Shown piece after piece: positions 1-31,996 of a stretch of 64,000 nt of DNA. Origin of the DNA: Patescibacteria group bacterium. Lineage in GTDB: Bacteria; Patescibacteriota; Minisyncoccia; Minisyncoccales; GWA2-38-27. The translations under genes were made by a program, and so were the position numbers. Each line of letters starts with the position of its first letter. Within the stretch, counting starts at the first letter, position 1. Under the pieces are notes generated by a model. That model was not told where the DNA came from, made no database searches, and saw only the letters and a list, made by a program, of their open reading frames with translations. The stretch lies in NCBI GenBank assembly GCA_020148045.1, contig JAHCRG010000006.1:9909-73908 (forward strand), in the 5' to 3' direction.

Positions 1-2523
1 AAAAATCTAAAATCAGAGTTAGTGATATTCCCAGGCGTAGAAGTAATTTCTACAGAAGGAATTCATATGTTAGTGGTTTTTGATAAGGATAAGTATATTA
101 AAAAAGATCAGATTAAAAACTGGAGTGATTATATTTCAGACTTTCTTGCTAGAATTAAAGTTCCGATAAAAAGATTTAAAAATAAGCAACCTCAAAAATC
201 TGACATGAAAGCGATTGAAATATTAGAAGAAACGAATAAATATTTTGGGTTGGTAATTTTTCCCCATGCGTTGAGCGATCAAGGAGTTGTGAATGAGTTA
301 CGAAAAGATACCCTTTTAGGGTATGCAACCGCTCAAACAAAACAACAAATTTATACCCATCGCTTAGCGGGAGTTTTAGAAATACCAGATAAAATCGAGA
401 ATTTACCAAAAGGATATTCAGGAATTGTATCAGGTAAAGATAAAAATTACAAATATAAAAAAGTTGCCTGTATAAATTGCTCCGATGCAAGGAGCTTTTC
501 GAAAGTAGGAATTAGTGGAAGTTATACATGGGTCAAGGCAATACCCACCCTTGAGGGCTTAAAACAGATTATTTATGAACCAGAGGAAAGAGTTCATATA
601 GGATTAAAAGACCCTAGAAAATTTAACTATCCCATTCTGTTTAAACTTAAAATTGATAATTGCTCTAAATCCTTTTTCTTTGGAAAAGGATTGGAAGTAA
701 ATCTTAATCCTCATTTCGTCACTATTATTGGAGGTAGGGGAAGCGGGAAATCTGCGTTTCTGGATACGCTTGTTTTATCATTAAATAGAAGTGAGGTTTT
801 AAATAGAGATAATTACATCAATAATTATTTAAAGAAAAAAGAAAGTCTTATTATTAAAGCGGATATTCTTAGTTCAAGTGATGGGACCGAAAAATCACTT
901 TCTTTCAGGAGCCTTAGTAGTGATGAAATTATTAAAGAGTTCCCTTTTGAATATTATCCCCAAAAAGAGATAGGAAAACTAGCTGATCCAAGAAGTAAAA
1001 CAGATTTAAGCAAGCTTATTTTCCAAAAAATCTTTGAGAAAAAAGCCAAGGAGGAGATAAAATTGATTAGAAAATATAATGACGATACACTTTCAGATTT
1101 AGGAGAGAATCGAGAACAAATTCAGAAAATTGAAAGAATTTTAAAAGATGAAGAGATTCTTAAGAAAAATTTGGAAGAAAGTAAAAAACAAATTGAATTT
1201 CTTCAAGATAAGAAAATCGAAACCCTTCTAGAAAAGAGAAAAAATTTTATTCAGATTCAAAACCAATATAAAGAAATAAAAGAAAAAATTAGTGATGAAA
1301 TTAAAATAATAAAAGAAAATCTAGAAGTATTTCAAAAAAATCATTTTGATTATTTATTTTTTCAAACCGAGGGGAATAAGAATTTTTTACCTAAAAAGTG
1401 GATTCAATTTGAAAAGTCTCGTTTACCTCAATTACTAAAAAATATATTCGATGGAAAAGAAAAATTATTTACCGGTTTGGAGATATTACTTCAGGAGATT
1501 GAAAAATATATTAAATATTTCGACCTAGAAAAAGAAATCAAAGAAATTAGTAGAGAAATCCAGAAAGTAGTCAAAACAAAAAGTCTCTCATATTCTGACA
1601 AAGGAGTAGAAGATTTACAGAAAAAAATCTCTGATGTTGAAACTAAGCTTAAAAAAATTGAAGAATTGAAATCCCGAAAACAAGAACTGATAAAAGAAAG
1701 AAAGAAAATTAGGGAAAATTATTTTTTACACCTTAAGGAGATCAGAAAGAAACTAGAAGATGTTTTCGGTAGTTTCTGTAATAATGAAGGTAAAATTTTA
1801 AATGAGCGCATTCGGATAGGCTTCTTTTTAAGTACAAAAAACAAAGAATGTATAAAAATGATTGAGAAAAATCACATAGTAGAGGATTCATTTCGTGGAT
1901 ATTTTCCACGGGAAATATTATTGTGGGTGATGGAAAATAAGGGATTAAATAAAGTAATTGAAGCATTCCGCGAAGGGAGCTTTGATTCGTGGCGGAAATG
2001 GAAAAAGATAGGACCGCAAAAAGTTAGTTATTTAAATAATATCATAAACAAAGAGGGAATTGCTATGAGATTAGAAGAAATATTACCTACCCTTTCATCT
2101 GGCTTAAAATGGCGAGTTGCTAAAAATTATAAACCATTATCCGAATGCTCGATTGGAGAAAGAAGTACGGCTGTATTAAGTATTATATTAGTATCAGGAG
2201 AAACTCCTCTTATAATTGATCAGCCAGAAGATGATTTAGATCACTCATATATATTTAAACCCCTTGCCGATATTATTAAACATGTAAAAAAGAAGAGGCA
2301 GTTAATTTTTGCTAGTCATAATGCAAACATTGTAATAAATGGAGATGCTGAGCAGATTTTAATTATGGAAGCAGAGGGCGGGAAGCACGGTAAGATTACG
2401 ATTTCCACGATCGAGGATATAGAAAAAAGAAATAAATTACTTTCTATTTTAGAGGGAGGAAGAGACGCTTTTGATAAAAGGGAGAAAAAATATGGCCCCG
2501 CAAACTCTCAATCAAAAAATTAA
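1..2523 (+). CDS. PHP-like phosphoesterase fused to ABC/SMC-RecF-SbcC-like ATPase; 5' end cut by window edge
   Basis: Frame is open from nt 1 (KNLKSEL precedes the tracked GTG at 22). N-terminal GVEVISTEGIHMLVVF looks like a PHP strand-His motif. Walker A GGRGSGKS, a roughly 400-aa K/E-rich coiled coil, signature-like CSIGERS, Walker B PLIIDQPEDDLD and H-loop FASHNAN are present. Confidence 0.7.
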   Translation, partial: KNLKSELVIFPGVEVISTEGIHMLVVFDKDKYIKKDQIKNWSDYISDFLARIKVPIKRFKNKQPQKSDMKAIEILEETNKYFGLVIFPHALSDQGVVNELRKDTLLGYATAQTKQQIYTHRLAGVLEIPDKIENLPKGYSGIVSGKDKNYKYKKVACINCSDARSFSKVGISGSYTWVKAIPTLEGLKQIIYEPEERVHIGLKDPRKFNYPILFKLKIDNCSKSFFFGKGLEVNLNPHFVTIIGGRGSGKSAFLDTLVLSLNRSEVLNRDNYINNYLKKKESLIIKADILSSSDGTEKSLSFRSLSSDEIIKEFPFEYYPQKEIGKLADPRSKTDLSKLIFQKIFEKKAKEEIKLIRKYNDDTLSDLGENREQIQKIERILKDEEILKKNLEESKKQIEFLQDKKIETLLEKRKNFIQIQNQYKEIKEKISDEIKIIKENLEVFQKNHFDYLFFQTEGNKNFLPKKWIQFEKSRLPQLLKNIFDGKEKLFTGLEILLQEIEKYIKYFDLEKEIKEISREIQKVVKTKSLSYSDKGVEDLQKKISDVETKLKKIEELKSRKQELIKERKKIRENYFLHLKEIRKKLEDVFGSFCNNEGKILNERIRIGFFLSTKNKECIKMIEKNHIVEDSFRGYFPREILLWVMENKGLNKVIEAFREGSFDSWRKWKKIGPQKVSYLNNIINKEGIAMRLEEILPTLSSGLKWRVAKNYKPLSECSIGERSTAVLSIILVSGETPLIIDQPEDDLDHSYIFKPLADIIKHVKKKRQLIFASHNANIVINGDAEQILIMEAEGGKHGKITISTIEDIEKRNKLLSILEGGRDAFDKREKKYGPANSQSKN

Positions 2524-2527
2524 TTGA
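2509..2527 (+). repeat. A-rich junction motif, copy A (caatcaaaaaattaattga)
   Basis: Shares the core atcaaaaaatt with copies C, D and E. It supplies the last codons (SKN) and stop of the upstream ORF. Confidence 0.8.
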
Positions 2528-2565
2528 CCCATCACTACCAAAAGTTTTCAACTTTGATGTGAGAG
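2527..2565 (+). repeat. REP-like imperfect palindrome R1
   Basis: Arms are cccatcactacca and gatgtgagag. It belongs to the same arm family as 5838-5879, 7710-7746 and 31997-32025, and is the most degenerate copy. Confidence 0.7.
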
Positions 2566-2579
2566 CAAGGAAATAAAAT

Positions 2580-2954
2580 ATGAATGGATATTTTTGTAAA
2601 GAATGTAATCATAGAAAATGGCTTTATGAATGGTTAAAAATCAATTTTTGTTTCTATTGCAAGAAAAAAACACCAAATAATGTTAATATTACTGTTTCTG
2701 ATAAAGTATCGATTAAAGATAATGTAAGGATAAAAATTAAAAGAAAAGGGTTTAAGAAATTTGTAATAGAAACTATAAGCGGATGGTTTAGCAGTGTGAA
2801 TCCAAGATTAAATAAAGGAGTTAATATCACTCGGACTATCGACAAGGAAAAAAAATGGTATGATCACGTCGTGAAAGATGCAAATACCGGGGAAATTATT
2901 CATGAAGAACATGAACCATTGGATGAACATAAAAGCAAAAAGTCAAAGAATTAA
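2580..2954 (+). CDS. small Zn-ribbon protein, unknown function
   Basis: Two Cys pairs (CKECNH and CFYCKKK) sit at the N-terminus. The protein is basic and ends in KSKKSKN, encoded by junction motif copy B. Confidence 0.5.
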   Translation: MNGYFCKECNHRKWLYEWLKINFCFYCKKKTPNNVNITVSDKVSIKDNVRIKIKRKGFKKFVIETISGWFSSVNPRLNKGVNITRTIDKEKKWYDHVVKDANTGEIIHEEHEPLDEHKSKKSKN

Positions 2955-2958
2955 TTGA
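2935..2958 (+). repeat. A-rich junction motif, copy B (degenerate)
   Basis: The sequence is aaaaagtcaaagaattaattgag. It shares aattaattga with copy A and gaaataaaa with the sequence after copy D. Confidence 0.6.
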
Positions 2959-2969
2959 GAAATAAAATT

Positions 2970-3575
2970 ATGATGAACGACATTTTAGAACAAGTCGTAG
3001 AAGATTATTTTAGAAGCAAGGGATATTTTACTCAACATAATGTTAAATATAGGCCTAATAAAGTGGGTCCACAGTATACGGTTTATTCTGATGTGGATGT
3101 CGTTGGTGTGCATCCTAAAAAGAGAGGTAGGGAAAGAGTCGTTGTAGTGAATTGCAAAAGTTGGCAGGTGGGACTTAATATAGATAAAACTTTAAAAACA
3201 CTCGATAAAAATCCTAATAAAAAAATTGCTGGAAAAGAACAATGGAAAAAATTTAGAGAAATAAGTAATAAAGTTTGGGCAGAAGCCCTTAAGAAGAAAA
3301 TATTTAATATAACTGGCCAAAAGAGCTTTAAATTTTATTTAGCAGTTACTAAATATAAAGGGAATAAAGATAGCTGGGAAAAATTTCCTTTATTTAAAAA
3401 AAATCTGATAGGCTGTGATATTGAAGTTATTGATATAAAAGCCATGCTTTTGGATACTTACAAATCAATAGGACGCACTCCGCTACACAGCGAATTAGGC
3501 CGTTTGTTGCAATTAATAAAGGCTAGTGGTGGTAAAATAGAATATATAGAAAAGAATAAAAAATCAAAAAATTGA
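2970..3575 (+). CDS. PD-(D/E)xK-like (restriction-endonuclease fold) protein, unknown function
   Basis: YSDVDVVGV followed by VVVVNCKSW fits a D...(E/N)xK nuclease-core pattern. ATG at 2970 is preferred over the tracked TTG at 2955. The C-terminus is KNKKSKN. Confidence 0.45.
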   Translation: MMNDILEQVVEDYFRSKGYFTQHNVKYRPNKVGPQYTVYSDVDVVGVHPKKRGRERVVVVNCKSWQVGLNIDKTLKTLDKNPNKKIAGKEQWKKFREISNKVWAEALKKKIFNITGQKSFKFYLAVTKYKGNKDSWEKFPLFKKNLIGCDIEVIDIKAMLLDTYKSIGRTPLHSELGRLLQLIKASGGKIEYIEKNKKSKN

Positions 3576-3578
3576 TTA
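3558..3578 (+). repeat. A-rich junction motif, copy C (aaaaaatcaaaaaattgatta)
   Basis: It is 21/21 identical to copy E and contains the palindrome AATCAA-AAAA-TTGATT. Confidence 0.9.
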
Positions 3579-3580
3579 GG

Positions 3581-4156
3581 ATGAAAATCATATTTATAAC
3601 TACAAATAAACATAAGTTTGAAGAAGTGCAGGGTATTTTAAAAGATTATCCTATTGAGTTGGAACAGTTGTCTATGGAGTACGAAGAAAATCATGATTCT
3701 AGAATGGAAGAGATTGCAACAAGTGCAGCAAGAAAACTTGCAGCAGAACTTAATAAACCACTAATATTAGAAGATACGGGTTTGTTCTTTGAGGCTTATG
3801 AGGGTTTTCCAGGAGCACTTCCTAAATTTGTTTTTAACGCTTTAGGATATAAGGGGATATTTAAGTTACTTCAAGGTGAGTCAAGAAAGGCATATTTTAA
3901 AACAGTAGCTGCTTATTGTGAGCCAAATAAAGAGCCTGTTTTATTTGACGGGATTGTGAGGGGGGATATTACTAATAAAGTATATAATAAAGATAAAGAC
4001 GCAATGCCATATGATAGAATTTTTATTCCACAAGGTGTGTCCAAAACAATTTCTGATATGACGTTAGAAGAAAAGAACGCACTTTCTCAAAGAGCAGAAG
4101 CATTTAAAAAATTCGGGGATTATATTGTAAACAAAAATAAAAAATCAAAAAATTAA
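3581..4156 (+). CDS. rdgB: RdgB/HAM1-family non-canonical purine NTP pyrophosphatase (dITP/XTPase)
   Basis: Motifs FITTNKHKFEE, EDTGLFFEA and MPYDRIFIP (FGYDPIF-like) are present at about 190 aa. ATG at 3581 is preferred. The C-terminus is NKNKKSKN. Confidence 0.85.
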   Translation: MKIIFITTNKHKFEEVQGILKDYPIELEQLSMEYEENHDSRMEEIATSAARKLAAELNKPLILEDTGLFFEAYEGFPGALPKFVFNALGYKGIFKLLQGESRKAYFKTVAAYCEPNKEPVLFDGIVRGDITNKVYNKDKDAMPYDRIFIPQGVSKTISDMTLEEKNALSQRAEAFKKFGDYIVNKNKKSKN

Positions 4157-4159
4157 TTA
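4139..4159 (+). repeat. A-rich junction motif, copy D (aaaaaatcaaaaaattaatta)
   Basis: It matches copies C and E at 20/21 positions. Confidence 0.9.
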
Positions 4160-4209
4160 AGAAATAAAAGGTCGGAAAGGTTAATAATTAATTAAATTAT
4201 TTTAAGAAT

Positions 4210-5010
4210 ATGACAAACACAATCTTAATAATTTTAGGAATAATTATCTTCATTATTTTGATTTCTATCAAGCAAATTAATCAGTATCAAAAAGGAGTAA
4301 AGTTTATGCTGGGTAAGTATATTGGTTTGATGAATCCGGGATGGAGATTGGTTTTCCCTATTATTCAGACCTATAGAAAAGTAGATTTAAGAGTAAAAGC
4401 AGTAGATGTACCAAGTCAGGAAGCAATAACTAAGGATAATATTTCAGTGAGCGTTAATGCTGTTATTTATTATAAGGTTCGAAGTGCTGATAAGGCAGTT
4501 TTAGAGGTAGAAAACTTTAATTATGCTATTTCTCAGTTGGCTCAGACAACAATGCGAAATGCTGTAGGTCAGGTGGATTTAGATGAACTTCTTTCCCAGA
4601 GAGACAGGGTTTCGGAAAACATAAGAACTATTGTAGATAAAGCCACTGATCCATGGGGAATTGAAGTTATCAATGTTGAGTTGAAAGATATAACTTTGCC
4701 GGAAGAAATGAAAAGAGTTATTGGCAAACAGGCAGAGGCAGAAAGAGAAAAAAGAGCAATAATTATTAAAGCTCAAGGAGAGGTGATTGCTGCTGACAAC
4801 ATGGCTAAAGCTGCTCAGATTTTGTCAGAATCAAAAGGAGCCCTGCATTTAAGGACTCTTCAGTCAGTTAATGATATAAGTTCTGACCAGTCAAATACTA
4901 TTGTTTTTGCAGTGCCTCTGGAAGTTTTAAGGGCTTTTGAAGCATTTGGTAAAAAATTACCAAAAGAAAACAAGAATGAGGAAGATAATAGCCCTCAATC
5001 TCAACTTTGA
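4210..5010 (+). CDS. SPFH/Band-7 (stomatin-like) membrane protein
   Basis: An N-terminal TM helix is followed by typical Band-7 sequence (VDLRVKAVDVPSQEAITKDNISV ... AEAEREKRAIIIKAQGE). Confidence 0.9.
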   Translation: MTNTILIILGIIIFIILISIKQINQYQKGVKFMLGKYIGLMNPGWRLVFPIIQTYRKVDLRVKAVDVPSQEAITKDNISVSVNAVIYYKVRSADKAVLEVENFNYAISQLAQTTMRNAVGQVDLDELLSQRDRVSENIRTIVDKATDPWGIEVINVELKDITLPEEMKRVIGKQAEAEREKRAIIIKAQGEVIAADNMAKAAQILSESKGALHLRTLQSVNDISSDQSNTIVFAVPLEVLRAFEAFGKKLPKENKNEEDNSPQSQL

Positions 5011-5030
5011 TTTTTTGGTAGAATGAAATA

Positions 5031-5789
5031 ATGAAAGAAGAAACTAAAAAACAATTAAAAGTTTATACAATTTTAGTTATTATTTTGGCTGCGGCGGCAG
5101 CGTTAAGTGTTTTTTTTCTTGGTTCTATTCAAGTTGGCGGGCAGGAGATTCCGATGGAAATAGAAATACCGCTATATTTAGGTGCTTTGGCTAATTTTGG
5201 AATGATGTTAATAGGTTATGGCTTAGTTGGGTTATTGGGTTATTATTTATCAAAGAAATTAGGATGGCCTGGTATTTTTAATGAAAGAGAAAACTGGAAA
5301 AGGTTATTTTTAAGACCATTATATCTTGGTGTAATAGCAGGGATTATTTTAATTATTGCTCAGAAAGTATTTGTTTTATTTCATAATTTAGGAGAATTGC
5401 CTCATCCAGCTTTTCCTCTTTCTTTTTTTGCTTCTATTACAGCAGGAATAGGAGAGGAATTAATGTTTAGATTATTTTTATTATCTTTTTGGGCTTTTAT
5501 TCTTCATTTGCTATTTAAGAGGTTTAAGAAACAAAACATAACAAACTGGATAGCTGTTATCATTGCTGCTTTAGTTTTTGGGGCTGTACACTTTCCAACT
5601 GCAATGATTCTTTATGGATTTACCTCACTTAGCCAGTTTCCAATTATTTTTATAGTTGAAATATTATTATTAAATGGAATTGTTGGCGTGGTAGCAGGCA
5701 GAGAGTTTATTAAATATGGCTTTATAGCAGCTGTTGGTATTCATTTCTGGGTAGACATTGTTTGGCACGTTATGTATGGATTATTTTAG
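5031..5789 (+). CDS. CPBP (CAAX/Abi) family intramembrane glutamic endopeptidase
   Basis: The protein is polytopic and carries the motifs EELMFRLFLL, FGAVHF and HFWVD. Confidence 0.85.
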   Translation: MKEETKKQLKVYTILVIILAAAAALSVFFLGSIQVGGQEIPMEIEIPLYLGALANFGMMLIGYGLVGLLGYYLSKKLGWPGIFNERENWKRLFLRPLYLGVIAGIILIIAQKVFVLFHNLGELPHPAFPLSFFASITAGIGEELMFRLFLLSFWAFILHLLFKRFKKQNITNWIAVIIAALVFGAVHFPTAMILYGFTSLSQFPIIFIVEILLLNGIVGVVAGREFIKYGFIAAVGIHFWVDIVWHVMYGLF

Positions 5790-5816
5790 AAAAAATAGTG
5801 TCAACTCTATTTTTAT

Positions 5817-5837
5817 AAAAAATCAAAAAATTGATTA
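5817..5837 (+). repeat. A-rich junction motif, copy E (non-coding position)
   Basis: It is identical to copy C. It lies 28 nt after the CPBP stop and directly abuts palindrome R2. Confidence 0.9.
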
Positions 5838-5879
5838 ACCCATCACTACCAGAAATCCTACGGATTTTGGTGTGAGGGT
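5838..5879 (+). repeat. REP-like imperfect palindrome R2
   Basis: The sequence acccatcactaccagaaatcctacggattttggtgtgagggt folds as a long hairpin. It has three single-nt bulges (A, T, G) on the 5' arm and a TAC triloop. Confidence 0.9.
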
Positions 5880-5887
5880 AAAAATTT

Positions 5888-6169
5888 ATGGAGAAGATAA
5901 ATAAAAAACAATTTACAGAGGAAGAGGCGAAGAGGATTGGTGAGGAGTTGGGGATTGATTGGAGCAAGTTTGACGTGGAGCAGTTTCGGATGGGATTAGA
6001 TGTGGAGCTGGAGCATGGAACAGTAGATCCAAAGACAAATGTTACTGACGATGATGAAATAATGACTGGCAAGATTGCTCTTGCTCACTTGAATGAATTT
6101 TCAGATTACTACACACGGCTTGAAAAGATGGAAAAAGAGGCAGAAGAATATTGGGAAGGGCTGAAGTAA
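5888..6169 (+). CDS. small acidic conserved hypothetical protein (possibly DUF5661-like)
   Basis: A 93-aa ORF with the motifs LEHGTVDPKTNVT and KIALAHLNEFSDYY. The family name is from memory and unverified. Confidence 0.45.
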   Translation: MEKINKKQFTEEEAKRIGEELGIDWSKFDVEQFRMGLDVELEHGTVDPKTNVTDDDEIMTGKIALAHLNEFSDYYTRLEKMEKEAEEYWEGLK

Positions 6170-6197
6170 AAAATCGCCCTCCGGGCGATTTTTTTGG
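6168..6197 (+). terminator. intrinsic terminator (AAAATCGCC family)
   Basis: The stem aatcgccc/gggcgatt is followed by a T-run. Confidence 0.8.
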
Positions 6198-6461
6198 TGG
6201 AGCGAAGAACTGATATTTTGCAAATCCGAGCATTTCGCTCGGCTTTTTATAAATTGACCCGGCATTATACCTACAATTCTCTTGACAAAGTCCTATCATG
6301 TTATATAACTTTAAGATAGAGTAAAGATAAGAAGAAATTATCTTAATTCAAAGCAATTTAAAAACTTAAAAGGAGATTATAGTGGATAGAAAAATTTGAT
6401 GTGATGTTAGACAGTTTTTAAGATTAGAGTGTTTTTGGTTTTAGACAGAAAGGAGAAAAGA

Positions 6462-7235
6462 ATGAACACAAAACCCAAAACCCTGTTATTTGTGTTTGTT
6501 GCGGCGGGGATGATTTTGTATGGCGGGTGTGCCGTGAGTGCTCCCCTTGTCGAAAAAGAGCCAAAAGAAGGCGTCTATTCGGCAGTAGAGGCAAGGCTCG
6601 TTATGGATCTCGTCTACTATAAGGCCGACCTGGGAAAGAAGATTACGACCACCCCTGTCCATTCAAGTGATTCCGGTTTTTTGTCAGGCGAAACTACAAC
6701 AAAACCTGGCGGGGGAACCACCTTTGCACCCGGTCTGGGTCTGTTCGGCTCAATCGGGACCGAGAACTTGAGGGTTATTGGCGGTATTTCTAGTAGGTGG
6801 AATACGCTGCACCATGAAGACGGCTACCGGGAAGGATTTCACAGCACAAAGCAGCAGGTTTCCGACATCAGGCCGCCATCCAGGGGCTCTTTCGTCTTTA
6901 CCCAACTGGTGCCTGGTACTTTTACCTTCATTCCTTCTGTGGGTCTTGAAGGTAAAATCAGGGAAAATCTTACGATAGGAGCAACTGTGGGCTTTCCTTA
7001 TATGGAATGGACAGCCCGATCAGGCCATGACAGATGGGGCTCTTGGGAAACCGTCCAGGATGACTCCTGGAAGGGTTTCGGTACAAGGTATACCGGAACT
7101 CTTGGCTGGGACTTGAATGATAGCGACAAGATCTTCCTTGGCGTTTTCTGGGAGGAATACCGGCCCGAGTTTGCCGGCGAGGGGGCCGAGATATCTGGTA
7201 TAGGTGGCTTATTTGGTTTTATTCGTAGATGGTGA
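6462..7235 (+). CDS. GC-rich putative lipoprotein, beta-rich with aromatic C-terminus
   Basis: An RBS (aaaggagaaaag) precedes ATG 6462. The signal peptide has a lipobox-like LYGGC. The protein is G/T/S-rich and ends FGFIRRW. One counted line gave about 50% GC. Confidence 0.5.
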   Translation: MNTKPKTLLFVFVAAGMILYGGCAVSAPLVEKEPKEGVYSAVEARLVMDLVYYKADLGKKITTTPVHSSDSGFLSGETTTKPGGGTTFAPGLGLFGSIGTENLRVIGGISSRWNTLHHEDGYREGFHSTKQQVSDIRPPSRGSFVFTQLVPGTFTFIPSVGLEGKIRENLTIGATVGFPYMEWTARSGHDRWGSWETVQDDSWKGFGTRYTGTLGWDLNDSDKIFLGVFWEEYRPEFAGEGAEISGIGGLFGFIRRW

Positions 7236-7354
7236 AGCTACAATCGTCGCCCAGTATGTTTGGGACACATTTTGCGTAAAAAGGGCTGAAGTTTATTCAG
7301 CCCTCTTTTATTTGGGCGTTTTTTGACAATTACAGGGAGGCGCAGCGTAAGCCC

Positions 7355-7383
7355 TTGACAGGTTATTTTAATTGCGCTATATT
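7355..7383 (+). promoter_or_regulatory. sigma70-type promoter
   Basis: TTGACA (7355-7360), a 17-nt spacer, then TATATT (7378-7383). Confidence 0.6.
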
Positions 7384-7388
7384 GCTCA

Positions 7389-7705
7389 ATGGTAATGGGT
7401 GAGCCAGATGAAGAGAGAAAGGTAAAAATAAGTTCAGTTTACAATAACATAAAAAAAAAAGAGCTTGAACTATTAACCTTTTAGCTCTTCATCATTAGGT
7501 TCTTCCCATTAATCACGGGTGAGAAGAGAGGCTGTTAGCGATCGCACAAAGAGGACATCTAGCTTAACCGACTAAGTTATTAATACAAGCAGAGAGAGTT
7601 AATACCCAAACCGGGTATAGATCGTTGCGTGTCTCTCTTTCTCATCCTATTGCTCTTTTAAAAGGGGCTTTTATCAAGCCCTTTTTTATTTGGGCGTTTT
7701 TTGGC
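7389..7705 (+). ncRNA. candidate ~300-nt transcript: leaderless 31-codon ORF (7389-7484) plus a structured 3' region and terminator
   Basis: ATG lies 5 nt after the -10 box. A long-range helix pairs GGGTGAGAAGAGAG (7517) with CTCTCTTTCTCATCC (7634), and AGCGATC pairs with GATCGTT. A conserved box CTCATCCTATTGCTCTTTTAA sits at 7641-7661. The hairpin GGGCTT/AAGCCC is followed by a T-run. Confidence 0.35.
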
Positions 7706-7709
7706 TTGT

Positions 7710-7746
7710 CCTCACACCAAAATTGGAAGATTTCTGGTAGTGATGG
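7710..7746 (-). repeat. REP-like imperfect palindrome R3 (inverted relative to R2)
   Basis: Its reverse complement is ccatcactaccagaaatcttccaattttggtgtgagg. This matches R2 over 18 nt and then 13-14 nt around a variable loop. Confidence 0.9.
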
Positions 7747-7758
7747 TAAAATGAAGAA

Positions 7759-8346
7759 ATGGAAAAAGCAACGCCTGTGACTTCAGCGGCTCCGGTTCCT
7801 CCTAAAAGCGGTGGCAGATCAGGATACGGGGCTGGTTGCGCAATAGGGTGTTTAATAATAGTGCTGATAACACTGTTAATCTTAGGTGCTTTGATTGGAA
7901 CAGGGTATTATTTCCTTTTTATGAGAGAAAAAGAGCCGGGAAGTTATTTTGATGTTGATAAAAAAGCTGAAAAAACAATTAAATGCGACACTGCTTCCTG
8001 CTTGGAAGAAAATCTTAAGAAATGCGCCCCAGCTAATGGCGGGGCAGAGATAGGAGAGTTTGCCGAGGTTGAATTTGAAATCTTAGGGCAAAGTGGTGAT
8101 TTCTGTGTGGTCTATGCTGAAGTAACTGAATTAAAAGAAATTCCTTCTCAATTGGAAGTAGCCCCTGATTTCATTCTTGAGAAATTGTTGGAAAATCTGA
8201 CACTGGAGTGTTTAATTCCAGAGAGAGTTTATACTCAAGGGATAGAGGAAGTCGGGGATTACATTGGAGAAAATCCCCACGCTGCCTGCAAAGGTCCTTT
8301 ATTTGATTTAATGGACAAATTTGGAATAAAAATAGAAGAATATTAA
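7759..8346 (+). CDS. membrane-anchored Cys-containing hypothetical protein
   Basis: An N-terminal TM helix is followed by a soluble domain with six Cys. An extended -10 box TGGTAAAAT ends 6 nt before the ATG. Confidence 0.5.
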   Translation: MEKATPVTSAAPVPPKSGGRSGYGAGCAIGCLIIVLITLLILGALIGTGYYFLFMREKEPGSYFDVDKKAEKTIKCDTASCLEENLKKCAPANGGAEIGEFAEVEFEILGQSGDFCVVYAEVTELKEIPSQLEVAPDFILEKLLENLTLECLIPERVYTQGIEEVGDYIGENPHAACKGPLFDLMDKFGIKIEEY

Positions 8347-9887: not shown

Positions 9888-11672
9888 ATGTCAAAAATTT
9901 CTAAAATTTTGATATTGGTTTTGATTATTGGTGGGATGGTTTTTGGATTTGGTTTAAATAAAGGCACAGCTCAGTCAGAGCCGCCTTTTCCAATAATAGA
10001 AAAACCCTTCCCAAAAGCACTTTCGTCTCGATACGTTTCTGATGAAATTATCGTTAAGTTTAAACCAGGAGTATCGGCAGAAAGAATTAGTGAGATTTAT
10101 CAGAAAGAAAAAATTCCTGAAGAAAAATATATTAGCCCCTTCGTTGGTTTTCGAGTTCTTAAAATCCCTGCCGGCAAAACCGTCGAAGAAATGGTTAATA
10201 TTTTCCAAAAAAATCCGTTAGTTGAATATACGGAGCCAAATTCGATTTGTTATGCCTTTATGATTCCCGCTGATGAACATTATCCTTGGCAATGGAACTT
10301 TGATGATGATAATACCATTAATACCGGTGGTGCTTCTTCTAATCCCTATGGTGGGGCAAACGGAGGAGGGATTAGAATGGAGGAGGCTTGGGATATTGAT
10401 ACTACAGCTCCTTTATATGGGGGTGATCCTAATGTGGTAGTGGCTGTGTTAGATACCGGGATTGCTTATGAAAATTATAAAGGGTTTTGCCGCTCTCCGG
10501 ATTTTGCTGGTTCATATCCTGGTTTTACTGCTGGTTATGATTTTGCTAATAGTGATATCCATCCTAATGATGATGAGGGTCACGGTACCCATGTAGCTGG
10601 AACAATAACCAGCTCTACTAATAATGACTACGTAGCTGGAATTGCTTTTAATTCGACCTTGATGCCAGTTAAAGTTCTCAACCGAAAAGGAGAAGGAACA
10701 GCCGATTGGGTAGCCGATGGGATTTATTATGCTGTCAATAATGGGGCAGATATTATTAATATGAGTTTAGGTTGGCCACCGGGTTACGATCCAGGAGAAA
10801 CAGTTTATAATGCGATTAAATACGCTTACGATCATGGCGTTGTTCAAATTGCCGCCACTGGCAATGAGAGTGCCAGCCAAATTTCTTACCCGGCTAAATA
10901 TTCAGAAGTTATTGCGGTTGGGGCGACAAGATATGATGAGACGCGAGCTTCTTACTCTAATTACGGAGAAGGAATTGACTTGGTTGCTCCTGGGGGAGAT
11001 TTGGGTGTTGACCAAAATGAAGATGGATATGGTGATGGAGTTTGCCAGATTACATTTTCTGGAGGAGCCTGCAGCTGGTATTACGTTTGGGCGGATGGAA
11101 CCTCAATGTCCACTCCTCATGTTTCAGGGGTTGTTGCTTTGCTTTTGGCTCAAGATTCTAATCGAACCCCTGATGACATAAGAAATATTCTTCAAAGTAC
11201 TGCCGAAGATAAAGGAACAACTGGTTGGGATCAATACTATGGACACGGAATCGTTGATGCCTATGCTGCCTTGACTTACGCACCAGCTGTTTCTATTAGC
11301 TTAACCACTGATGGCTTGGTGGAATTTGGAACTTTACCATTGGAGGCAACAGCAGACAGTTCTGAAGATGTTCAAACTGTCAGTATTAATATAGGACCAG
11401 CTAACTTAGATGTTAGAAGCACGGTTTTTTCCGACAATGGAAACAGTTGGTCTCTGGGAACAACCAATGGTGACAATCAGGTAGTTTGGGAATATTCAGA
11501 GGATGGAAGCATTTGGACTATTTTTGAAGCTCCCGATACCCTGTATGATTTGGCTGATAATGTGGCCCAAGGAAATACTCAAAATCTATATTTACAGATA
11601 ACTATGCCCACTGAAACCTCTTCTTCAAATCAATATAGTTCAGTAGTAACTATTGTTGCAACTGAACCTTAA
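9888..11672 (+). CDS. secreted subtilisin-like serine protease (peptidase S8) with C-terminal surface-protein-like domain
   Basis: Catalytic motifs VAVLDTGI (Asp), HGTHVAGT (His) and GTSMSTPHVSG (Ser) are present. ATG at 9888, which follows aaggga, is preferred over 9864. Confidence 0.9.
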   Translation: MSKISKILILVLIIGGMVFGFGLNKGTAQSEPPFPIIEKPFPKALSSRYVSDEIIVKFKPGVSAERISEIYQKEKIPEEKYISPFVGFRVLKIPAGKTVEEMVNIFQKNPLVEYTEPNSICYAFMIPADEHYPWQWNFDDDNTINTGGASSNPYGGANGGGIRMEEAWDIDTTAPLYGGDPNVVVAVLDTGIAYENYKGFCRSPDFAGSYPGFTAGYDFANSDIHPNDDEGHGTHVAGTITSSTNNDYVAGIAFNSTLMPVKVLNRKGEGTADWVADGIYYAVNNGADIINMSLGWPPGYDPGETVYNAIKYAYDHGVVQIAATGNESASQISYPAKYSEVIAVGATRYDETRASYSNYGEGIDLVAPGGDLGVDQNEDGYGDGVCQITFSGGACSWYYVWADGTSMSTPHVSGVVALLLAQDSNRTPDDIRNILQSTAEDKGTTGWDQYYGHGIVDAYAALTYAPAVSISLTTDGLVEFGTLPLEATADSSEDVQTVSINIGPANLDVRSTVFSDNGNSWSLGTTNGDNQVVWEYSEDGSIWTIFEAPDTLYDLADNVAQGNTQNLYLQITMPTETSSSNQYSSVVTIVATEP

Positions 11673-25358: not shown

Positions 25359-26489
25359 TTAATCTCCAGGAGGAGGTAAAGTAATATCCTCGGGTTCGAA
25401 GATAACTTTTCTCTCACCTTCTTCCACTATACCAAGATCAATTAAATGGTAATTAGATTTTTCGCCAGTATTAATAGTCCTCTCTACAGCAGATGGGGGC
25501 ACGAACATGTAGTAACCAATTCCCCAGTTAAAAGTTGTAAGACAATCTTCCAGCCCTACCCCAAGTTCTCGCATAAACAGAAATAAAGGAGGTATTTCTT
25601 TTACCCAAGTATGGATACGGTAAGTGAGCCGCCGTTTATCAAAGGCTATCTTGCTTACACCACTACCAGTACCTGGCAAAAGAGCATGGATTTCTATCTC
25701 GTTTTCTAATAGCGCTTCAACCAGAGCTACATATGACCTGGTAGGAATAAGGGCTTCTTCTCCAAGCGTCCTACCAGTGGCAGGTAATTTGGTAAGAAAT
25801 TTTTCTGGAAGCATTAGAGCACGTTTGATAACAAGCGAAATCCCGTTGGCGTGTAAGCCCGAAGACGTAACACCGATTATATGATCACCCGGTTGCAATT
25901 TTTCTCCAGTGATAAGTCGATGGGATGGAGCAATAATCCCGGTAACGCAACCACTCAAAGAGGGAGCACTTTTTACGGGTCGCTTAGATTTGATTAAATA
26001 ACGGAGAGAAGGAGACTCGCCTGCGGGTAGGGCCATACCAACCATTTTGCATACTTTTAAAAAACCATTAGCTAAATCTTCGCTCCTTTTTTCATCTTGA
26101 AACCACTCGCTATCACCGGCAGCGACTTCGTCAGTGTAGACAACCGGCATTGCCCCTTGAGCAATTACATCATTCACCGCCATCAGGGCAGTATCCACGC
26201 CGATGTCATTATAGAAAGTTTTACCTGTGCCAGAAAACTGATACATCCATTCAGAAATCCAATTCTTATTTCCAAGACCTTCCTGAGTGTTGCACCAGAG
26301 GTGAGGATGGTTGCCCCGGTATTCATAGACAGCTCCATGGGGGTCTATTAAATCCATACGAATAAAGACCTTCCGTCGATTGGGAAAACTTAATGTTTGC
26401 TTTCCTGTTCTTATCATTGCTCGTTTAAAAGCTTCGATTTTACTGTAATCTACGCCAGCTTGAGCATAAGCACTTTTTTTCTTTGCCAT
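25359..26489 (-). CDS. AIR synthase-related (PurM-like) protein, divergent
   Basis: GVDTALMAVNDVIAQGAMPVVYTDEVA and LPAGESPSL match the PurM/AIRS fold. The canonical DGVGTK motif is replaced by QEGLGNK. ATG at 26489 follows aaaggg. Confidence 0.65.
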   Translation of the reverse strand: MAKKKSAYAQAGVDYSKIEAFKRAMIRTGKQTLSFPNRRKVFIRMDLIDPHGAVYEYRGNHPHLWCNTQEGLGNKNWISEWMYQFSGTGKTFYNDIGVDTALMAVNDVIAQGAMPVVYTDEVAAGDSEWFQDEKRSEDLANGFLKVCKMVGMALPAGESPSLRYLIKSKRPVKSAPSLSGCVTGIIAPSHRLITGEKLQPGDHIIGVTSSGLHANGISLVIKRALMLPEKFLTKLPATGRTLGEEALIPTRSYVALVEALLENEIEIHALLPGTGSGVSKIAFDKRRLTYRIHTWVKEIPPLFLFMRELGVGLEDCLTTFNWGIGYYMFVPPSAVERTINTGEKSNYHLIDLGIVEEGERKVIFEPEDITLPPPGD

Positions 26490-26500
26490 TTTTATCCCTT

Positions 26501-26743
26501 TCAATGATACCGTATTGTCATACTTGTAATTCCCCTTGATCCTTTTCGAGGTGTAAAGCCAAAATATTTTTTGAATTCATAAATGGCCATCTCGTCTATT
26601 TTACGTACTCCATTTGAAGAATACCACCGGCCCTCAGTTTTTTTTAATTCTGCTTTTATAGGCCAACGGCGAATCCAAGATTCAGAAGAAGACTCGCTTG
26701 GATTGTCTCTTGTTACAATAAATTCCTTTGTGATTATCTTCAT
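26501..26743 (-). CDS. hypothetical 80-aa protein, tightly coupled upstream of the PurM-like gene
   Basis: The RBS is aaagggg. Its stop lies 11 nt before the PurM-like ATG. I recognise no motif. Confidence 0.4.
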   Translation of the reverse strand: MKIITKEFIVTRDNPSESSSESWIRRWPIKAELKKTEGRWYSSNGVRKIDEMAIYEFKKYFGFTPRKGSRGITSMTIRYH

Positions 26744-26791
26744 TTTCTACCCCTTTCAATTATAAATGAACAGTTTTCTTTTTCCAATGCT

Positions 26792-26819
26792 ATTTTAATT
26801 ATTATGATAAATTTGTCAA
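26792..26819 (-). promoter_or_regulatory. sigma70-type promoter (minus strand)
   Basis: The minus strand reads TTGACA, a 16-nt spacer, then TAAAAT. Confidence 0.6.
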
Positions 26820-26832
26820 CTGAAATTTAAAG

Positions 26833-26861
26833 AAAGCCCGTTTTATAAAACGGGCTTTTTT
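26833..26861. terminator. bidirectional intrinsic terminator after purL
   Basis: The sequence is AAAGCCCG-ttttataaaa-CGGGCTTTTTT. Confidence 0.8.
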
Positions 26862-26890
26862 ATCAACAAGATTGTGTTTCGTTGATACTA

Positions 26891-29800
26891 TTAATGTTCT
26901 TCACACCATTTTCTGGCGTTTTGGAAAAGTTTTAGCCAGGGGGAAACTTTGAGCTTTGGCCATTTTCTTGACCAATAAAACCATTGCCAGAAAGTGAATA
27001 ATCTTTCAGGGTGAGGCATCATTGCCAAGTGCCTACCATCAGGTGAACACAAAGCAGTAATACCCAGGATTGAACCATTGGGATTGTAAGGATATCTCAT
27101 TGTGGGAACTCCGTCATCATCAACGAAGCGAAGGGGAGCCAAGTTTTTCTCCAGGACCTCCTTAAGAATCGAGTCGCTAGGGAAGAAACAACGACCCTCG
27201 CTGTGAGCTACCCAGATACCGAGAACTGAGCCCTCCATATCCTGGAGCATTAACGCTGGGCTGGGCATGACTTTAACTGCTATAGGTCGCGATTCGAAGA
27301 TTCTTGATTCATTCCGGACAAAACGCGGCTGTTTTATTAGCTCAATGCCTGGCCGAGGTATCCAACCGAGAAAAGGCATAACCTGAGAGCCATTACAGAC
27401 ACCCAGAGAAAAAGTGTCTGGCCGAGAGTAGAAGTTTTCAAACTCTTTTTGGACTCGCTCGTTGGTCTTAATTACCCAAGCCCAACCTTTGCCTGCATCC
27501 AAAACATCTGCGTAACTGAAGCCACCTGAGAAAGCAATGCCTCGAAAATCATTCAAGCTAATTCTTCCTTCAACCAAATCAGTCATGGTAACATCCCAGG
27601 CCTCAAAACCGGCAGCATCGAAAGCTCCAGCCATTTCCTTATCTCCGTTAGTGCCTACTTCACGGAGAATAGCCACCTTTGCTTGCTTAACTTTCATCTT
27701 TATCTCCGGGGTTGCTTCGGGCTTAAAGCGAAGCTCTAGAGGAAGGCCTTTCCGGTCATAAGTATTTTTCCTTTCAGCTTCTACACAGGCCGGATTGGCT
27801 TGGAGTTTATCCAGCCGATAGGAAGTTTCTTGCCATATGTTTCGAAGTTTTCTCATATCTTCAGACAAGACAGGCTGACCTTTGTGATGAATCTTTATCT
27901 GATAATCATTAGTGGTACGTCCGAGTATATGGCAGCAACCCTCTAGTCCTTGGCCTAGCAAGAATCTCAGGATTCTCCTTTCATCTTTGGGCAGATATTC
28001 AATGACTAGGCCTAACTCTTCTGAGAAAAGTATAGGTAGGATGTTTGTTTTCCAAATAGGCCTGCGAAAGCTAATATACAAACCACAGTTTCCCGCAAAA
28101 GCCATCTCTAAGAGGCAGGTTATTAAACCACCATCAGAACGGTCATGGCCAGCTAAGATTAAATCCCTCCTGATTAGCTCTTGAATCGCTTCAAATCCCT
28201 GACGCAAAATTTGGGGATTTTCAACATCAGGGGCTTGATTACCAATCTGATTGTGAACCTGAGCTAAGGCTGAGCCCCCGAGTCGCTGCTTGTCCCTGGA
28301 AAGGTCAATTAACATCAATTTGCTTTGACCCGGCATTTTAATATCTGGGGTGACAACTCTAGTAATATCTGGGCAGGGGGCAAAACTAATCATTTGGACA
28401 GTGCCTGGTGACTTAACAGGATGTTTCTGGTCATTTTTGGTAGTCCAGGCAGTCATTGAGACGGAATCCTTGCCAACTGGAATTCGCAGTCCCAACTTAC
28501 GGCAGAGACCGCTAGTTGCTTTAACTGCTTCATAAAGCCGGGCATCTTCACCTGGCTGCTTGCAAGGCCATTGCCAGGTAGCTGAAAAGTTAATTGACTC
28601 AAAGCTTTCAACCAGTGCCCAGACCAGATTGGTTAAAGATTCACCTAGGCTCATTCTTCCTCCGGCTTTTGGATTAACCAGACCTTTAATTGGCTGTTCA
28701 CCAATAGCCATTGCTGTACCAGTAGTTACAAAGAAGCTATCAGCAGTTACAGCACAGTCAGCCAAGGTAAGTTGGCAGGGCCCAACTGTTTGTTGCTGAG
28801 CAACCAAACCACCTACTGAACGGTCAACCTTGCGAGTTAGGAATTGTTTTGAAGCAACCTTTGGCAAACGAAGAACTCGCTCTAAGGCCTTCATAACTGT
28901 TAATCCTTCTGGTAGTTGAAGTGGTTTAAGTTGGCGGAGTATCTTTTGGCACTTGATAGTCATCTGAGGTAAATTAGCCAGCAGGAAATTCATATCAACA
29001 TCAATGGGTATTTTTTGCTCCCGAGGTGCGTCATCGGGGGCTGAGCGGTCAGTGACCACCAATTTCCCATCACCAGTAATTTCTCCAACCACATACATTG
29101 GGCAACGATTTCGCTGACAGATTTTTCGCAATGTTTCTAATCTCTCTGGCCAGACAATCATTACCATACTCTCTTGGGACTCATTGCACCAGAAGACATA
29201 GACAGGCATGGTTTTATCTCCGCAGGGAATCTCCCGGAGTTCATAGCGGGCTCCAGCAGGAAAACTAATTTCAGGTAGGGCTACACTTTCACCACCAGCT
29301 CCTAAGTCAGTAGTGCTGACAATAGGATTTTCGTCTCCTAATTCTGAGCAGGCCTGAAAGACATCATTCATTCGATTTTCCATTTCCGGATTAGCCCGCT
29401 GGACTGAATTCCAGTCAAGTTCTTCCTCTTGAGCACCAGCATCTTTGCTTGAACCAGAACCTCCACCCAAACCAATCCAATATCTGTCTCCACCCAACTG
29501 AACAACTGGATACCCCTTTTCGGGCTTCATTTTATAGGCATGTTTCTCGTCAATATAGCCAAAGTTCCCAGCCACCATACAAGTTTTTCTCCAGCCATGG
29601 TGTTCTTTGCCAATCATTTGTTCAAACGAAGTAAAAGAGCCCAAGATTACTGGCTGTCCGAACATGTTGCCATAGTAACTGGCTCCATTGGAAGCTTGGA
29701 TGATAATCTCTAAAGGTGTTTGGAAACGCTTGGGATGGGACGCATACTCTTTTTCCCAAAGTAAAATATAATCTGGGATAAAGAGATTGGCTACATAATA

Positions 29801-30826: not shown

Positions 30827-30841
30827 ATCTTTTCTCCTTTC

Positions 30842-30871
30842 CCAACCTATGGTTGGTCAGCCGTAGGCTGA
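30842..30871 (-). repeat. double-hairpin 30-mer, copy 1 (5' UTR of purL)
   Basis: The plus strand reads ccaacctatggttggtcagccgtaggctga. The minus strand reads TCAGCC-TAC-GGCTGA-CCAACC-ATA-GGTTGG. It is identical to 46006-46035. Confidence 0.95.
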
Positions 30872-30949
30872 TTTTCCAAAAAATATTGTCAATGAGCTAC
30901 TTGCCCCGCACCGAAGTTGTTCTGGTGCGGAGTTCGCATACGATACTCA

Positions 30950-31011
30950 ACCATAGAAAATTTTATATTGTTTGTCAAATTTTTTGACAAAGTTTGGAAA
31001 TTTGCTAAGAT
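30950..31011. promoter_or_regulatory. divergent purL/purC promoters sharing a 21-bp palindrome
   Basis: The plus strand has TTGACA (30984-89), a 16-nt spacer, then TAAGAT. The minus strand has TTGACA (30978-73), a 17-nt spacer, then TATGGT. The palindrome is tttgtcaaa-ttt-tttgacaaa (30971-30991). Confidence 0.55.
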
Positions 31012-31069
31012 AATTCATTAACTAATAGTTCTTTGAGTTTTTAATAATTGAATTAGAAAGGAGATAGAG

Positions 31070-31978
31070 ATGAAGCAGACGATAATAATAAGAACAATGG
31101 TTTCAGGACACAAACGCAGACAGGGTAAGGTTAGAGATATTTATAATCTCGGAGATGGCAGATTAGTTATTATTGCCACTGACCGGATTTCGGCTTTTGA
31201 TGTGGTTATGGAAAATGGTATTCCTGATAAAGGAAAAGTACTGACTGCACTTACTAAGTTCTGGCTGCAAAAACTTCAGTCTGTGGCTTCGCCGCACCAT
31301 CTTGTGAGTACAGAGCTTGATCGTCTTCCAGAGGAGTTTCAAAGAGAATGTTTTGAAGGCAGAGTTATGGTTTGTCGAGAAGCAGAGCCCTTACCTGTTG
31401 AGTGTGTGGTCCGAGGATACTTAGCTGGTAGTGGTTGGAAAGAGTATCAAAAGACAGGTCAGATTTGTGGCATTAAGCTTCCTTCAGGATTAAAGCAATG
31501 TGACAAATTGCCAGAACCAATTTTTACTCCAGCAACTAAAGCTCAAGCTGGCCATGATGAGAATATTACATTTGAAGATGTTTGTAAGTTATTAGCTAAT
31601 CGATCCCTAGCAGAAAGCTTGAGAGATAGAAGCATAAATCTATACCGAAAGGCGCATGATTTTGCGTTGAAGCGGGGTGTTATCATTGCTGATACCAAGT
31701 TTGAGTTTGGTAGAGTTGATGGTACAATTCTCCTTATTGACGAGGTATTGACTCCAGATTCCAGTAGGTTTTGGCCTGTTGATGAATATGAACCAGGTCA
31801 TGACCAGGTAAGCTTTGACAAACAGTTTGTCCGTAACTATTTAGAGACGCTCTGCGAGAATGGCAAATGGGATAAAACTCCTCCTGGGCCAAGATTGCCT
31901 GACACTATTGTTGCAGGAACATGGAACAGATATCGAGAACTTTACAGACGTTTAACGAGAAAAGATTTAAAGCCCTGA
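31070..31978 (+). CDS. purC: phosphoribosylaminoimidazole-succinocarboxamide (SAICAR) synthase
   Basis: GKVRDIY and ATDRISAFD are present. It is the long form of about 300 aa. The RBS is aaaggagat. Confidence 0.9.
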   Translation: MKQTIIIRTMVSGHKRRQGKVRDIYNLGDGRLVIIATDRISAFDVVMENGIPDKGKVLTALTKFWLQKLQSVASPHHLVSTELDRLPEEFQRECFEGRVMVCREAEPLPVECVVRGYLAGSGWKEYQKTGQICGIKLPSGLKQCDKLPEPIFTPATKAQAGHDENITFEDVCKLLANRSLAESLRDRSINLYRKAHDFALKRGVIIADTKFEFGRVDGTILLIDEVLTPDSSRFWPVDEYEPGHDQVSFDKQFVRNYLETLCENGKWDKTPPGPRLPDTIVAGTWNRYRELYRRLTRKDLKP

Positions 31979-31996
31979 TTATAAAATTGGGGTTTG

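Follow-up and report, generated by a model that had tools for sequence, protein, structure and literature searches.

Short bulged hairpins as a candidate family of insertion-type repeats between and inside genes of Nealsonbacteria-like Patescibacteria

Four imperfect palindromes occur in the window, by which we mean the whole 64-kb stretch of DNA analysed here. We consider, with a probability of roughly three in four, that they belong to a family of short palindromic insertion elements found throughout a lineage of Nealsonbacteria-like Patescibacteria. The best-supported description is a REP/RPE-like insertion-type repeat, similar to REPs in size and hairpin form but colonising genes in frame as RPE do. 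The original prediction had taken the four copies for dispersed REP-like imperfect palindromes and not ordinary terminators, and more than 100 distinct copies with paired arms and covarying stems bear this out. It missed that the family is lineage-wide and that many copies are in-frame insertions in protein-coding genes. The family is apparently undescribed so far; a search of the searchable literature for the arm sequences, for palindromic elements of the CPR and for Nealsonbacteria repeats returned no description of it.

Four copies in the window and the anatomy of the repeat

The four copies, named R1 to R4 and read directly from the window (Table 1), follow a common plan, CCC(N)-TCAC-T-ACCA-(loop or inner stem)-TGGT-GTGA-GGG. 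A covariance model made from related copies was run over the whole window with no filters and found exactly these four, at 38.8–46.6 bits (E 1.7e-10 to 3.8e-13), in agreement with the predicted number, positions and two orientations. The best further match in the window is a possible, uncertain relic of a decayed hairpin in mnmA. Arm searches that allowed mismatches gave seven matches per arm in the window, against 2.4 and 0.7 expected, and this count was reached in none of 100 shuffles of the window. Chance resemblance is excluded by the covariance-model E-values together with identical arms of 9–11 nt at more than 100 loci.

Table 1 Hairpin copies, occupied and unoccupied sites, host genes and neighbouring features. 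Positions given without a locus name are those of the window; a slash marks the insertion point and parentheses enclose the inserted element.
Feature	Location	Strand	Sequence	Observation
R1	2527–2566	+	CCCATCACTACCAAAAGTTTTCAACTTTGATGTGAGAG	38.8 bits (E 1.7e-10); ssDNA fold z -1.2 (weak)
R2	5838–5879	+	CCCATCACTACCAGAAATCCTACGGATTTTGGTGTGAGGG	45.2 bits; ssDNA fold -12.2 kcal/mol, z -5.25
R3	7708–7748	-	CCATCACTACCAGAAATCTTCCAATTTTGGTGTGAGG	44.5 bits; ssDNA fold z about -2.1 (weaker)
R4	31996–32027	-	CCCTCACTACCAAAATTTTGGTGTGAGGG	46.6 bits; ssDNA fold -13.2 kcal/mol, z -5.8
Possible decayed relic	42655–42683	-	CCCTCAGACCAAATCGGTATTAAGGGC	last codons of mnmA; 3 mismatches; 12.8 bits, E 0.12
Unoccupied version of R1 junction	2942–2972	+	GTCAAAGAATTAATTGA/GAAATAAAATTATG	defines insertion boundaries
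Window junction, empty	2942		AATTAATTGA/GAAATAAAATTATG	
Window junction, filled	R1		AATTAATTGA(CCCATCAC...GTGAGAGCAAG)GAAATAAAATATG	
miaA site, empty			AAAAGC/AAAATC	
miaA site, filled			AAAAGC(TTGCCCTCACACCA...TGGTAGTGATGGG)AAAATT	
dnaE site, empty			GAGAAT/AAGATA	
dnaE site, filled			GAGAAC(ATACCCTCACACCAAAAATTTGGTAGTGAGGGT)AAGATA	
Gene-end motif	2509–2527, 2940–2958, 3561–3577, 4142–4160, 5820–5838		AAAAA(A/G)TCAAA(A/G)AATT(A/G)ATT(G/A)A	
MiaA	L005, L162, L200, L225			in-frame hairpin
DnaE	L134			in-frame hairpin; Pfam HHH_6 alignment spans insert
LigA	L144			two tandem copies just before KxDG motif; adenylation domain match in two stretches
GlyRS	L193, L239			Pfam-confirmed gene; best matched stretch does not span insert
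Prepilin peptidase PilD	L168, L138 (two copies in L138)			A24_N alignment spans insert
Pol III delta' (holB-like)	L141			Pfam alignment spans insert
PilB-type ATPase	L113			Pfam-confirmed; best matched stretch does not span insert
EF-P (efp)	L165, L199			Pfam-confirmed; best matched stretch does not span insert
DegT aminotransferase	L171			Pfam alignment spans insert
Small different hairpin in pilD	L244 ~6590–6640		GCCCTGCCAAAAGGCAGG	encodes ALPKGR
Inteins	L134 dnaE residues 378–796; L190 residues 1112–1310			Intein_splicing, LAGLIDADG_3
Copy with very long loop	L254 10887–10992			loop ~75 nt, spans miaA stop
Seemingly lone 3' arms	L177 8745; L203 6229; L206 4813/7771; L210 2247			
Other conserved hairpin	L039 ~1775–1820; L108 ~4990–5050; also L198		TCCCCGCCAAAnTTTnCTTCGnAAAnnTTAGGCGGGGA	just downstream of family copies
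Y1_Tnp gene	L138 4731–5387			Pfam PF01797, E 1e-12
Y1 locus after type IV pilus cluster	L138 4686–5412; L244 ~9950–10690; L245 ~1060–1850			

Extra nucleotides in the 5' arm, which had been claimed for every copy, are indeed present throughout: a T after TCAC in all four, an A after CCC in R1–R3 and a G after ACCA in R2 and R3. R2 is intact, with three single-base bulges (A, T and G) in its 5' arm and the inner stem GAAATCC/GGATTT. R3 is an inverted copy of R2's subfamily, 1.8 kb away, and the two have 18 + 14 nt in common around a differing inner hairpin, in line with the 18 + 13–14 nt predicted. R4 is a short-loop copy with the T bulge only and, as predicted, without an inner hairpin; the identical copy is found in an ENA scaffold (L121) and a Logan contig (L122) of the same organism as the window. 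R1, of the inner-stem subfamily AAAGTTTTCAACTTT, has decayed: it shows a C.A mismatch, and its foot reads GAGAG.

The stretches between the four copies hold 2–5 ordinary genes each. R1 starts 4 nt past the stop of the open reading frame at 22–2523 and 15 nt ahead of the ATG at 2580, flanked by AATTAATTGA on one side and GAAATAAAATATG on the other. The ATG (5888) of a DUF5661 gene follows 9 nt past the end of R2; at three related loci (L140, L163 and L216) a copy is placed 10–11 nt upstream of short ORFs with similar N-termini, which may or may not be DUF5661 genes. The plus-strand end of R3 is 12 nt before the ATG at 7759, and on its minus-strand side come GACAAGCC and a bidirectional terminator-like hairpin. 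R4 is positioned 19 nt past the stop of purC (31978) and ahead of the gene starting at 32085, followed on the plus strand by CTTGTTTTTTTATTTT.

Several features of these surroundings were also recorded. The segment 5880–7710, bracketed by the inverted pair R2/R3, has a G+C content of 0.43 vs 0.33–0.37 in its flanks. The purL–purC block (within 26000–32000) has a G+C content of 0.41–0.46, and R4 falls exactly at the G+C drop. The best non-self matches of PurC are 60–65% identical, and the few named ones come from Acidobacteria, Phycisphaerae, Actinobacteria and Planctomycetota; together, G+C content and PurC matches suggest that the purine genes were acquired. The open reading frame at 22–2523 (833 aa), in the low-G+C start of the window (0.30), matches SMC_N and AAA_21 (AbiEii-like ATPase) and is followed downstream by small genes without Pfam matches. 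The region at the window start, adjoining R1, may be a defence or accessory island.

Family members conform to 5'-CCC(N)TCAC-Y-ACCA-(G + variable inner stem-loop)-TGGT-GTGA-GGG with a tail of 3 nt, usually CAA, and measure 30–49 nt. Past GTGA the 3' flank reads G G G C A A G at 100, 100, 80, 70, 70, 69 and 55%, and conservation of the 5' flank stops at (A/G)CCC. In copies with a long loop, a G after ACCA forms a third bulge, so that single-base bulges fall at every fifth position of one arm (CCC-N-TCAC-T-ACCA-G-inner stem). GTAG is present only in the reverse-strand 3' arm (TGGTAGTGA), across the bulge. Five inner-stem subfamilies were distinguished, namely copies with no inner stem and a short AAATTT-type loop (R4), GAAGTTTTCAACTTT (R1), GAAATTYCTTYGRAATTT (R2 and R3), GTYCCGCC..GGCGGRAT and AATTTYATT, and the same subfamilies recur at unrelated sites in different contigs. 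Direct tandem copies 3–7 nt apart were seen at four loci (L133, L138, L144 and L206), some of them in frame.

Nearly every arm has its partner (144 of the 146 5' arms, 149 of the 159 3' arms). In the covariance analysis proposed along with the original prediction, on an alignment of 58 sequences, 90% of cells are paired vs 37–54% with the partner slid, and 10 of 17 pairs vary on both sides, values reached in none of 500 shuffles. Covariation lies mostly in the inner stem, the part that the search patterns left free, and the outer stem contributes the compensated double changes ACTA/TAGT, CCAC/GTGG and ACCC/GGGT. Nearly all related loci were fetched by an exact-stem pattern, and the conservation of the outer stem and the bulge is therefore inflated by ascertainment. 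Two miaA orthologues (L253 and L254), the only unbiased ones, were fetched via the MiaA protein instead; their stems are still paired, and in one of them the stem is compensated as ACCC/GGGT and the bulge has changed to a purine. The predicted conserved asymmetry also holds: between CAC and ACC, 110 copies have a bulged T, 7 have a C, 3 have no base and none has a purine, a count biased because index copies were chosen with T and informative in only about 25 extra copies.

Larger forms were noticed as well. Some copies, such as that of L254, have very long loops, and several of the seemingly lone 3' arms follow a conserved AAC(A/G)AAGTTAGTCCTTGTT(A/T)TGG, which suggests nested loop insertions or a larger structured variant. 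In addition to the other conserved hairpin of Table 1, GC-rich hairpins ending in ...GGGCAAG are found ahead of AATTAATTGA junctions in L152, L231 and L237.

Distribution, genic copies and empty sites

The census of the arms beyond the window, another proposed check, retrieved at least 120 metagenome loci in relatives of the window organism with the exact-stem pattern, comprising at least 108 distinct hairpin sequences. The same pattern found no match in viral contigs. Among the matches listed for a looser pattern in genome contigs, 9 loci (10 copies) have the full CCC...GGG hairpin and none of the 9 has a non-CPR label; about 110 other matches of this pattern were set aside as chance, in unrelated phyla. 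The density is modest, with 4 copies per 64 kb in the window; the fetched loci hold about one further copy in every 27 kb. No gathering-level match to Rfam 15 was found in the window, and permissive thresholds gave no sub-threshold match on any copy in 2400–8000.

Besides a ribosomal-protein operon, the window contains secY, whose product is 83% identical to that of Candidatus Nealsonbacteria RBG_13_37_56 and 79% to that of RIFOXYB1_FULL_40; the window is accordingly assigned to a Nealsonbacteria-like member of the Patescibacteria. Two contigs, presumed to be hairpin-bearing, encode SecY 80–86% identical to the window's. The closest named homologues of the MiaA from L005 belong to Nealsonbacteria, Staskawiczbacteria and "Patescibacteria group". 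As far as these sequences place it, the family is lineage-wide in Nealsonbacteria-like Patescibacteria (CPR), a one-clade placement that uses SecY and MiaA similarity and a few NCBI names, with no phylogeny behind it. Four MAGs titled "uncultured Candidatus Saccharibacteria" (binchicken; L005, L008, L021 and L029) also carry the hairpin; these titles look unreliable in view of the named MiaA homologues (L005) and the SecY similarity.

An open frame of at least 30 codons on each side runs through the hairpin in 32 of 119 distinct copies. After removal of likely spurious ORFs and chance matches, about 22 of the 119, or one in five, remain as in-frame copies, in at least 13 gene families and with 9–15 residues added each (Table 1). 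Pfam confirmed 9 of the 10 host genes tested, and in several hosts the domain alignment across the insert is about 11–12 residues longer than the profile. All usable frames and both orientations are seen inside genes; the commoner orientation (about 3 to 1) is sense and encodes P/A-S/L-H/T-Q/P...G-S-D/E-G. An identical hairpin sequence occurs in three reading frames within unrelated essential genes. The intact reading frames indicate that in-gene copies are probably translated. Inteins were also present in two hairpin-bearing genes.

Close orthologues have empty sites, identifying the in-gene copies as insertions. Ten of the best 120 MiaA homologues (65–100% identical) have ...KK-S-(L(P/S)SHQ....GSDG)-KIPFLVGG, with the insert in parentheses, and most others of the best 120 have a single residue at this position. 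Comparison of empty and filled DNA at the miaA site, the dnaE site and the window junction (Table 1) revealed no target-site duplication. Orthologous miaA copies differ in the inner stem at four base pairs, all compensated (AAATTCCGAAGGAATTT vs ATCCGCCAAAGGCGGAT), and the DNA flanking them is about 85–90% identical by eye. We infer from these sequences that the miaA inner stem was probably replaced from another copy and not changed by stepwise mutation.

Other elements were seen at or near the same sites. Six MiaA homologues (P0154, P0185, P0192, P0228, P0194 and P0215) have unrelated extra segments, such as TIHPPRPPAKRAP and GKKGKIGTVPKGG, at the position of the hairpin insert, which may be a hotspot for other inserted elements. 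The small hairpin in pilD of L244, located where L168 and L138 have the family element, may be a deleted remnant or another element. In the window, the gene-end motif of Table 1 ends four consecutive genes and precedes R1 and R2; it gives these genes their stop codon, so that unrelated proteins end in ...(K)KSKN*. The junction ...GTCGAAAAATTAATTGA/GAAATAAAATTATG is found again at many related loci, some of which have a hairpin there and others none.

Between co-directional genes, the two orientations are about equally frequent (about 28 forward vs 22 reverse), and the hairpin end is often 10–17 nt upstream of the next start codon in either orientation. A T-tract after the hairpin is not enriched across the family, and most copies are thus not canonical terminators. 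As to the claim that R4 doubles as the purC terminator, a T-run begins 4 nt past the stem on the plus strand, but a simple terminator scan made no call there. Termination of purC transcription by R4 is plausible. Both arms end in GAGG(G), which is the sole purine-rich stretch before the ATG for R2 and R3, so an effect on translation initiation is possible; the ribosome-binding site of these two genes may be formed, or else masked, by the 3' arm through its GAGG(G) end. Among other candidate signals, a sigma-70 promoter (TTGAC just upstream) was rejected because hairpins differ in length and no -10 element keeps a constant distance, and a CRP-like operator as the half-sites face outwards at spacings from 6 to more than 30 nt. 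K-turn and bulge-helix-bulge motifs were rejected by hand, with no tandem G.A pairs and all bulges on one strand.

Candidate enzymes and competing explanations

Conserved extrahelical bases had led to the prediction that HUH-type enzymes (RAYT/IS200-IS605 TnpA) or integron integrases recognise the hairpin. For the former, every ORF in the window and in some 1 Mb of family loci was searched with E. coli RayT and then with an HMM of 129 homologues. The search yielded one match, a Y1_Tnp gene in L138, and no Y1, HUH or RAYT gene in the window. Pfam likewise detected no transposase, recombinase, integrase or HUH protein among window ORFs from about 1 to 46 kb; the ribosomal-protein operon at 46–64 kb was covered by the RAYT HMM and not by Pfam. 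The L138 gene belongs to a very large family and has close homologues (more than 90% identical) in L244–L246, where it is syntenic and single-copy. A perfect inverted repeat of 18–19 bp, GGGGACACACTACTTAATT...AATTAAGTAGTGTGTCCCC, encloses the gene and extends over its stop codon. This flanking palindrome, GGGGACACACTAC...GTAGTGTGTCCCC, differs from the family hairpin, with which it has only CACTAC/GTAGTG in common, and has the opposite foot, GGGGACAC...GTGTCCCC. In the approximately 1 Mb of family loci, the GGGACAC...GTGTCCC palindrome occurs only at the Y1 locus itself and is not dispersed. Across these loci and the window, which sample partial genomes, no mobilising enzyme for the hairpin was found.

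In a strict REP/RAYT system, a domesticated, once-per-genome HUH (Y1) transposase would recognise the bulged single-stranded hairpin and spread it. We regard this as unlikely, although it has the best claim among the alternatives: size, hairpin form, conserved asymmetry and dispersal resemble REPs, the clade has a single-copy syntenic Y1_Tnp gene whose frequency (one per ~1 Mb sampled) fits one copy per ~1 Mb genome, and the Y1-flanking repeat and the hairpin arms share the hexamer named above. Against it, that repeat has a different foot and is confined to its locus, and distant Y1 homologues from other organisms (about 48–50% identical) have their own GACAC/GTGTC-type flanks. The related genome GCA_030617105.1 has the gene, yet 39 kb of it contain no hairpin and its miaA and dnaE sites are empty. 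Moreover, the window encodes no such protein, GTAG is within the stem and not at the 5' end, doublets are direct and not inverted REPINs, and many copies are intragenic. The different flanking palindrome, the pattern in GCA_030617105.1 and the lack of such a gene in the window leave a RAYT link unsupported in the partial genomes sampled. There is a somewhat slimmer chance that the hairpin is the substrate of a non-RAYT system, either a new ssDNA-hairpin insertion and replacement machinery, which would place units of 30–45 nt with no target duplication and swap whole inner stems at fixed sites, or a host-selected structural signal kept in essential genes such as dnaE, ligA, glyRS and efp (for instance for replication, translation pausing or DNA uptake in epibiotic Patescibacteria). 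Slimmer again is the chance of a host cis-acting RNA signal (terminator, mRNA stabiliser, processing site or RBS mask) kept by selection and not by mobility. The placement of intergenic copies upstream of starts in both orientations, the GAGG(G) arm ends, the T-runs after R4 and some other copies and the conserved, compensated stems would all suit such a signal. However, orientations are about equal between co-directional genes, there is no general T-tract, no Rfam family matches, and the same sequence sits in three frames of unrelated essential genes whose close orthologues lack it.

A DNA uptake or genome-marking motif, built up by biased uptake and recombination as for Neisseria DUS and Haemophilus USS, is very improbable. 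Intergenic DUS and USS are often inverted pairs and Patescibacteria rely on imported nucleic acids; both facts speak for such a motif, as does a lineage-wide, sequence-conserved repeat in coding and intergenic DNA. Yet single arms almost never occur alone, copies are insertions of 30–45 nt and not substitutions, the density is 10–20 times below that of DUS/USS, and variable inner stems with compensatory changes point to the folded form. We give hardly any credence to unrelated intrinsic terminators alike by accident, or to integron attC sites. R4 is terminator-like and attC sites are bulged hairpins with variable loops, but most copies have no T-run and some are inside genes. The copies have neither RYYYAAC/GTTRRRY cores nor the arrangement of a cassette array, and the window ORFs scanned (about 1–46 kb) yielded no integrase, leaving the predicted recognition by an integron integrase without backing as well.

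For the REP/RPE-like insertion-type repeat, the sequences show that copies arise by insertion with no target duplication and persist where they are harmless: at stop/RBS junctions, often upstream of starts, and at places in proteins where an in-frame insert is tolerated. The stems stay paired through evolution, arms are seldom alone, and the pyrimidine bulge is nearly always kept on one arm. Beyond this, we propose that the element would be read strand-specifically as a folded single strand (ssDNA or RNA), that a trans-acting enzyme would copy or move the hairpin, and that copies would swap whole inner stems, whether through re-insertion or through gene conversion. The intact stems retained for long at orthologous coding sites could instead reflect a host function and not selfish persistence.

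Relation to known repeats and significance

The closest parallels are two families of bacterial palindromes. Rickettsia palindromic elements (RPE), reportedly described by Ogata et al. in 2000, are about 100–150 bp long, occur between genes and in frame inside essential genes, and are translated into an extra peptide. We know of no enzyme that mobilises them. Like RPE (mentioned in PMC1779305), the hairpin is a palindromic repeat confined to a reduced-genome, host-dependent lineage, is both intergenic and in frame in essential genes, and differs in presence or absence between related genomes. Unlike RPE, its units are only 30–49 nt, its host phylum is unrelated, its inner stem is hypervariable, and single bases bulge at regular intervals from one of its arms.

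REPs are by definition extragenic, have a 5' GTAG or CGTC tag, form inverted doublets and flank their own RAYT gene. Similar to the REPs and REPINs of E. coli and Pseudomonas, the present hairpins are imperfect palindromes (20–45 nt in those systems) at tens per Mb, in both orientations, sometimes clustered and conserved at about family level, with some copies plausibly co-opted as terminators. They depart from REPs in that about 22 of 119 copies are in frame inside genes, so the family is not purely extragenic. No GTAG or CGTC is at the 5' end, GTAG being internal; doublets are direct tandems and not the inverted ones of REPINs and BIMEs; and the sole Y1 lineage found in these partial genomes (L138, L244–L246) is flanked by a different palindrome. 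The GTAG and CGTC superfamilies of REPs are treated in PMC3733652.

The extrahelical bases recall the subterminal hairpins of IS200/IS605 and integron attC sites, in which such bases mark one strand for an ssDNA-acting enzyme. Insertion with no target duplication is a further likeness to IS200/IS605, but here no tnpA or tnpB is adjacent and the copies are autonomous units of 30–49 nt. In contrast to attC, the foot is CCC...GGG, with no core sites, cassette array or adjacent intI. TIGR arrays differ, by their description, in their unit, and the present copies are scattered, forming doublets at most.

The genomes of Patescibacteria (CPR) are tiny and streamlined, and they are thought to be poor in repetitive DNA. 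If our reading is right, the hairpin would rank with the shortest palindromic elements known to enter essential proteins in frame, and the "selfish DNA in genes" of Rickettsia would extend to a second, unrelated lineage of reduced-genome symbionts. The hairpin would then serve as a marker for strain and lineage history, its genic copies would map, by natural experiment, the loops of core enzymes that tolerate insertions, and its defined, strand-asymmetric structure would offer a bait for the enzyme that moves it. For annotation, the family explains the inserts of 9–15 residues (Pro/Ser/His...Gly-Ser-Asp-Gly) and the conserved hairpins by start codons in these MAGs.
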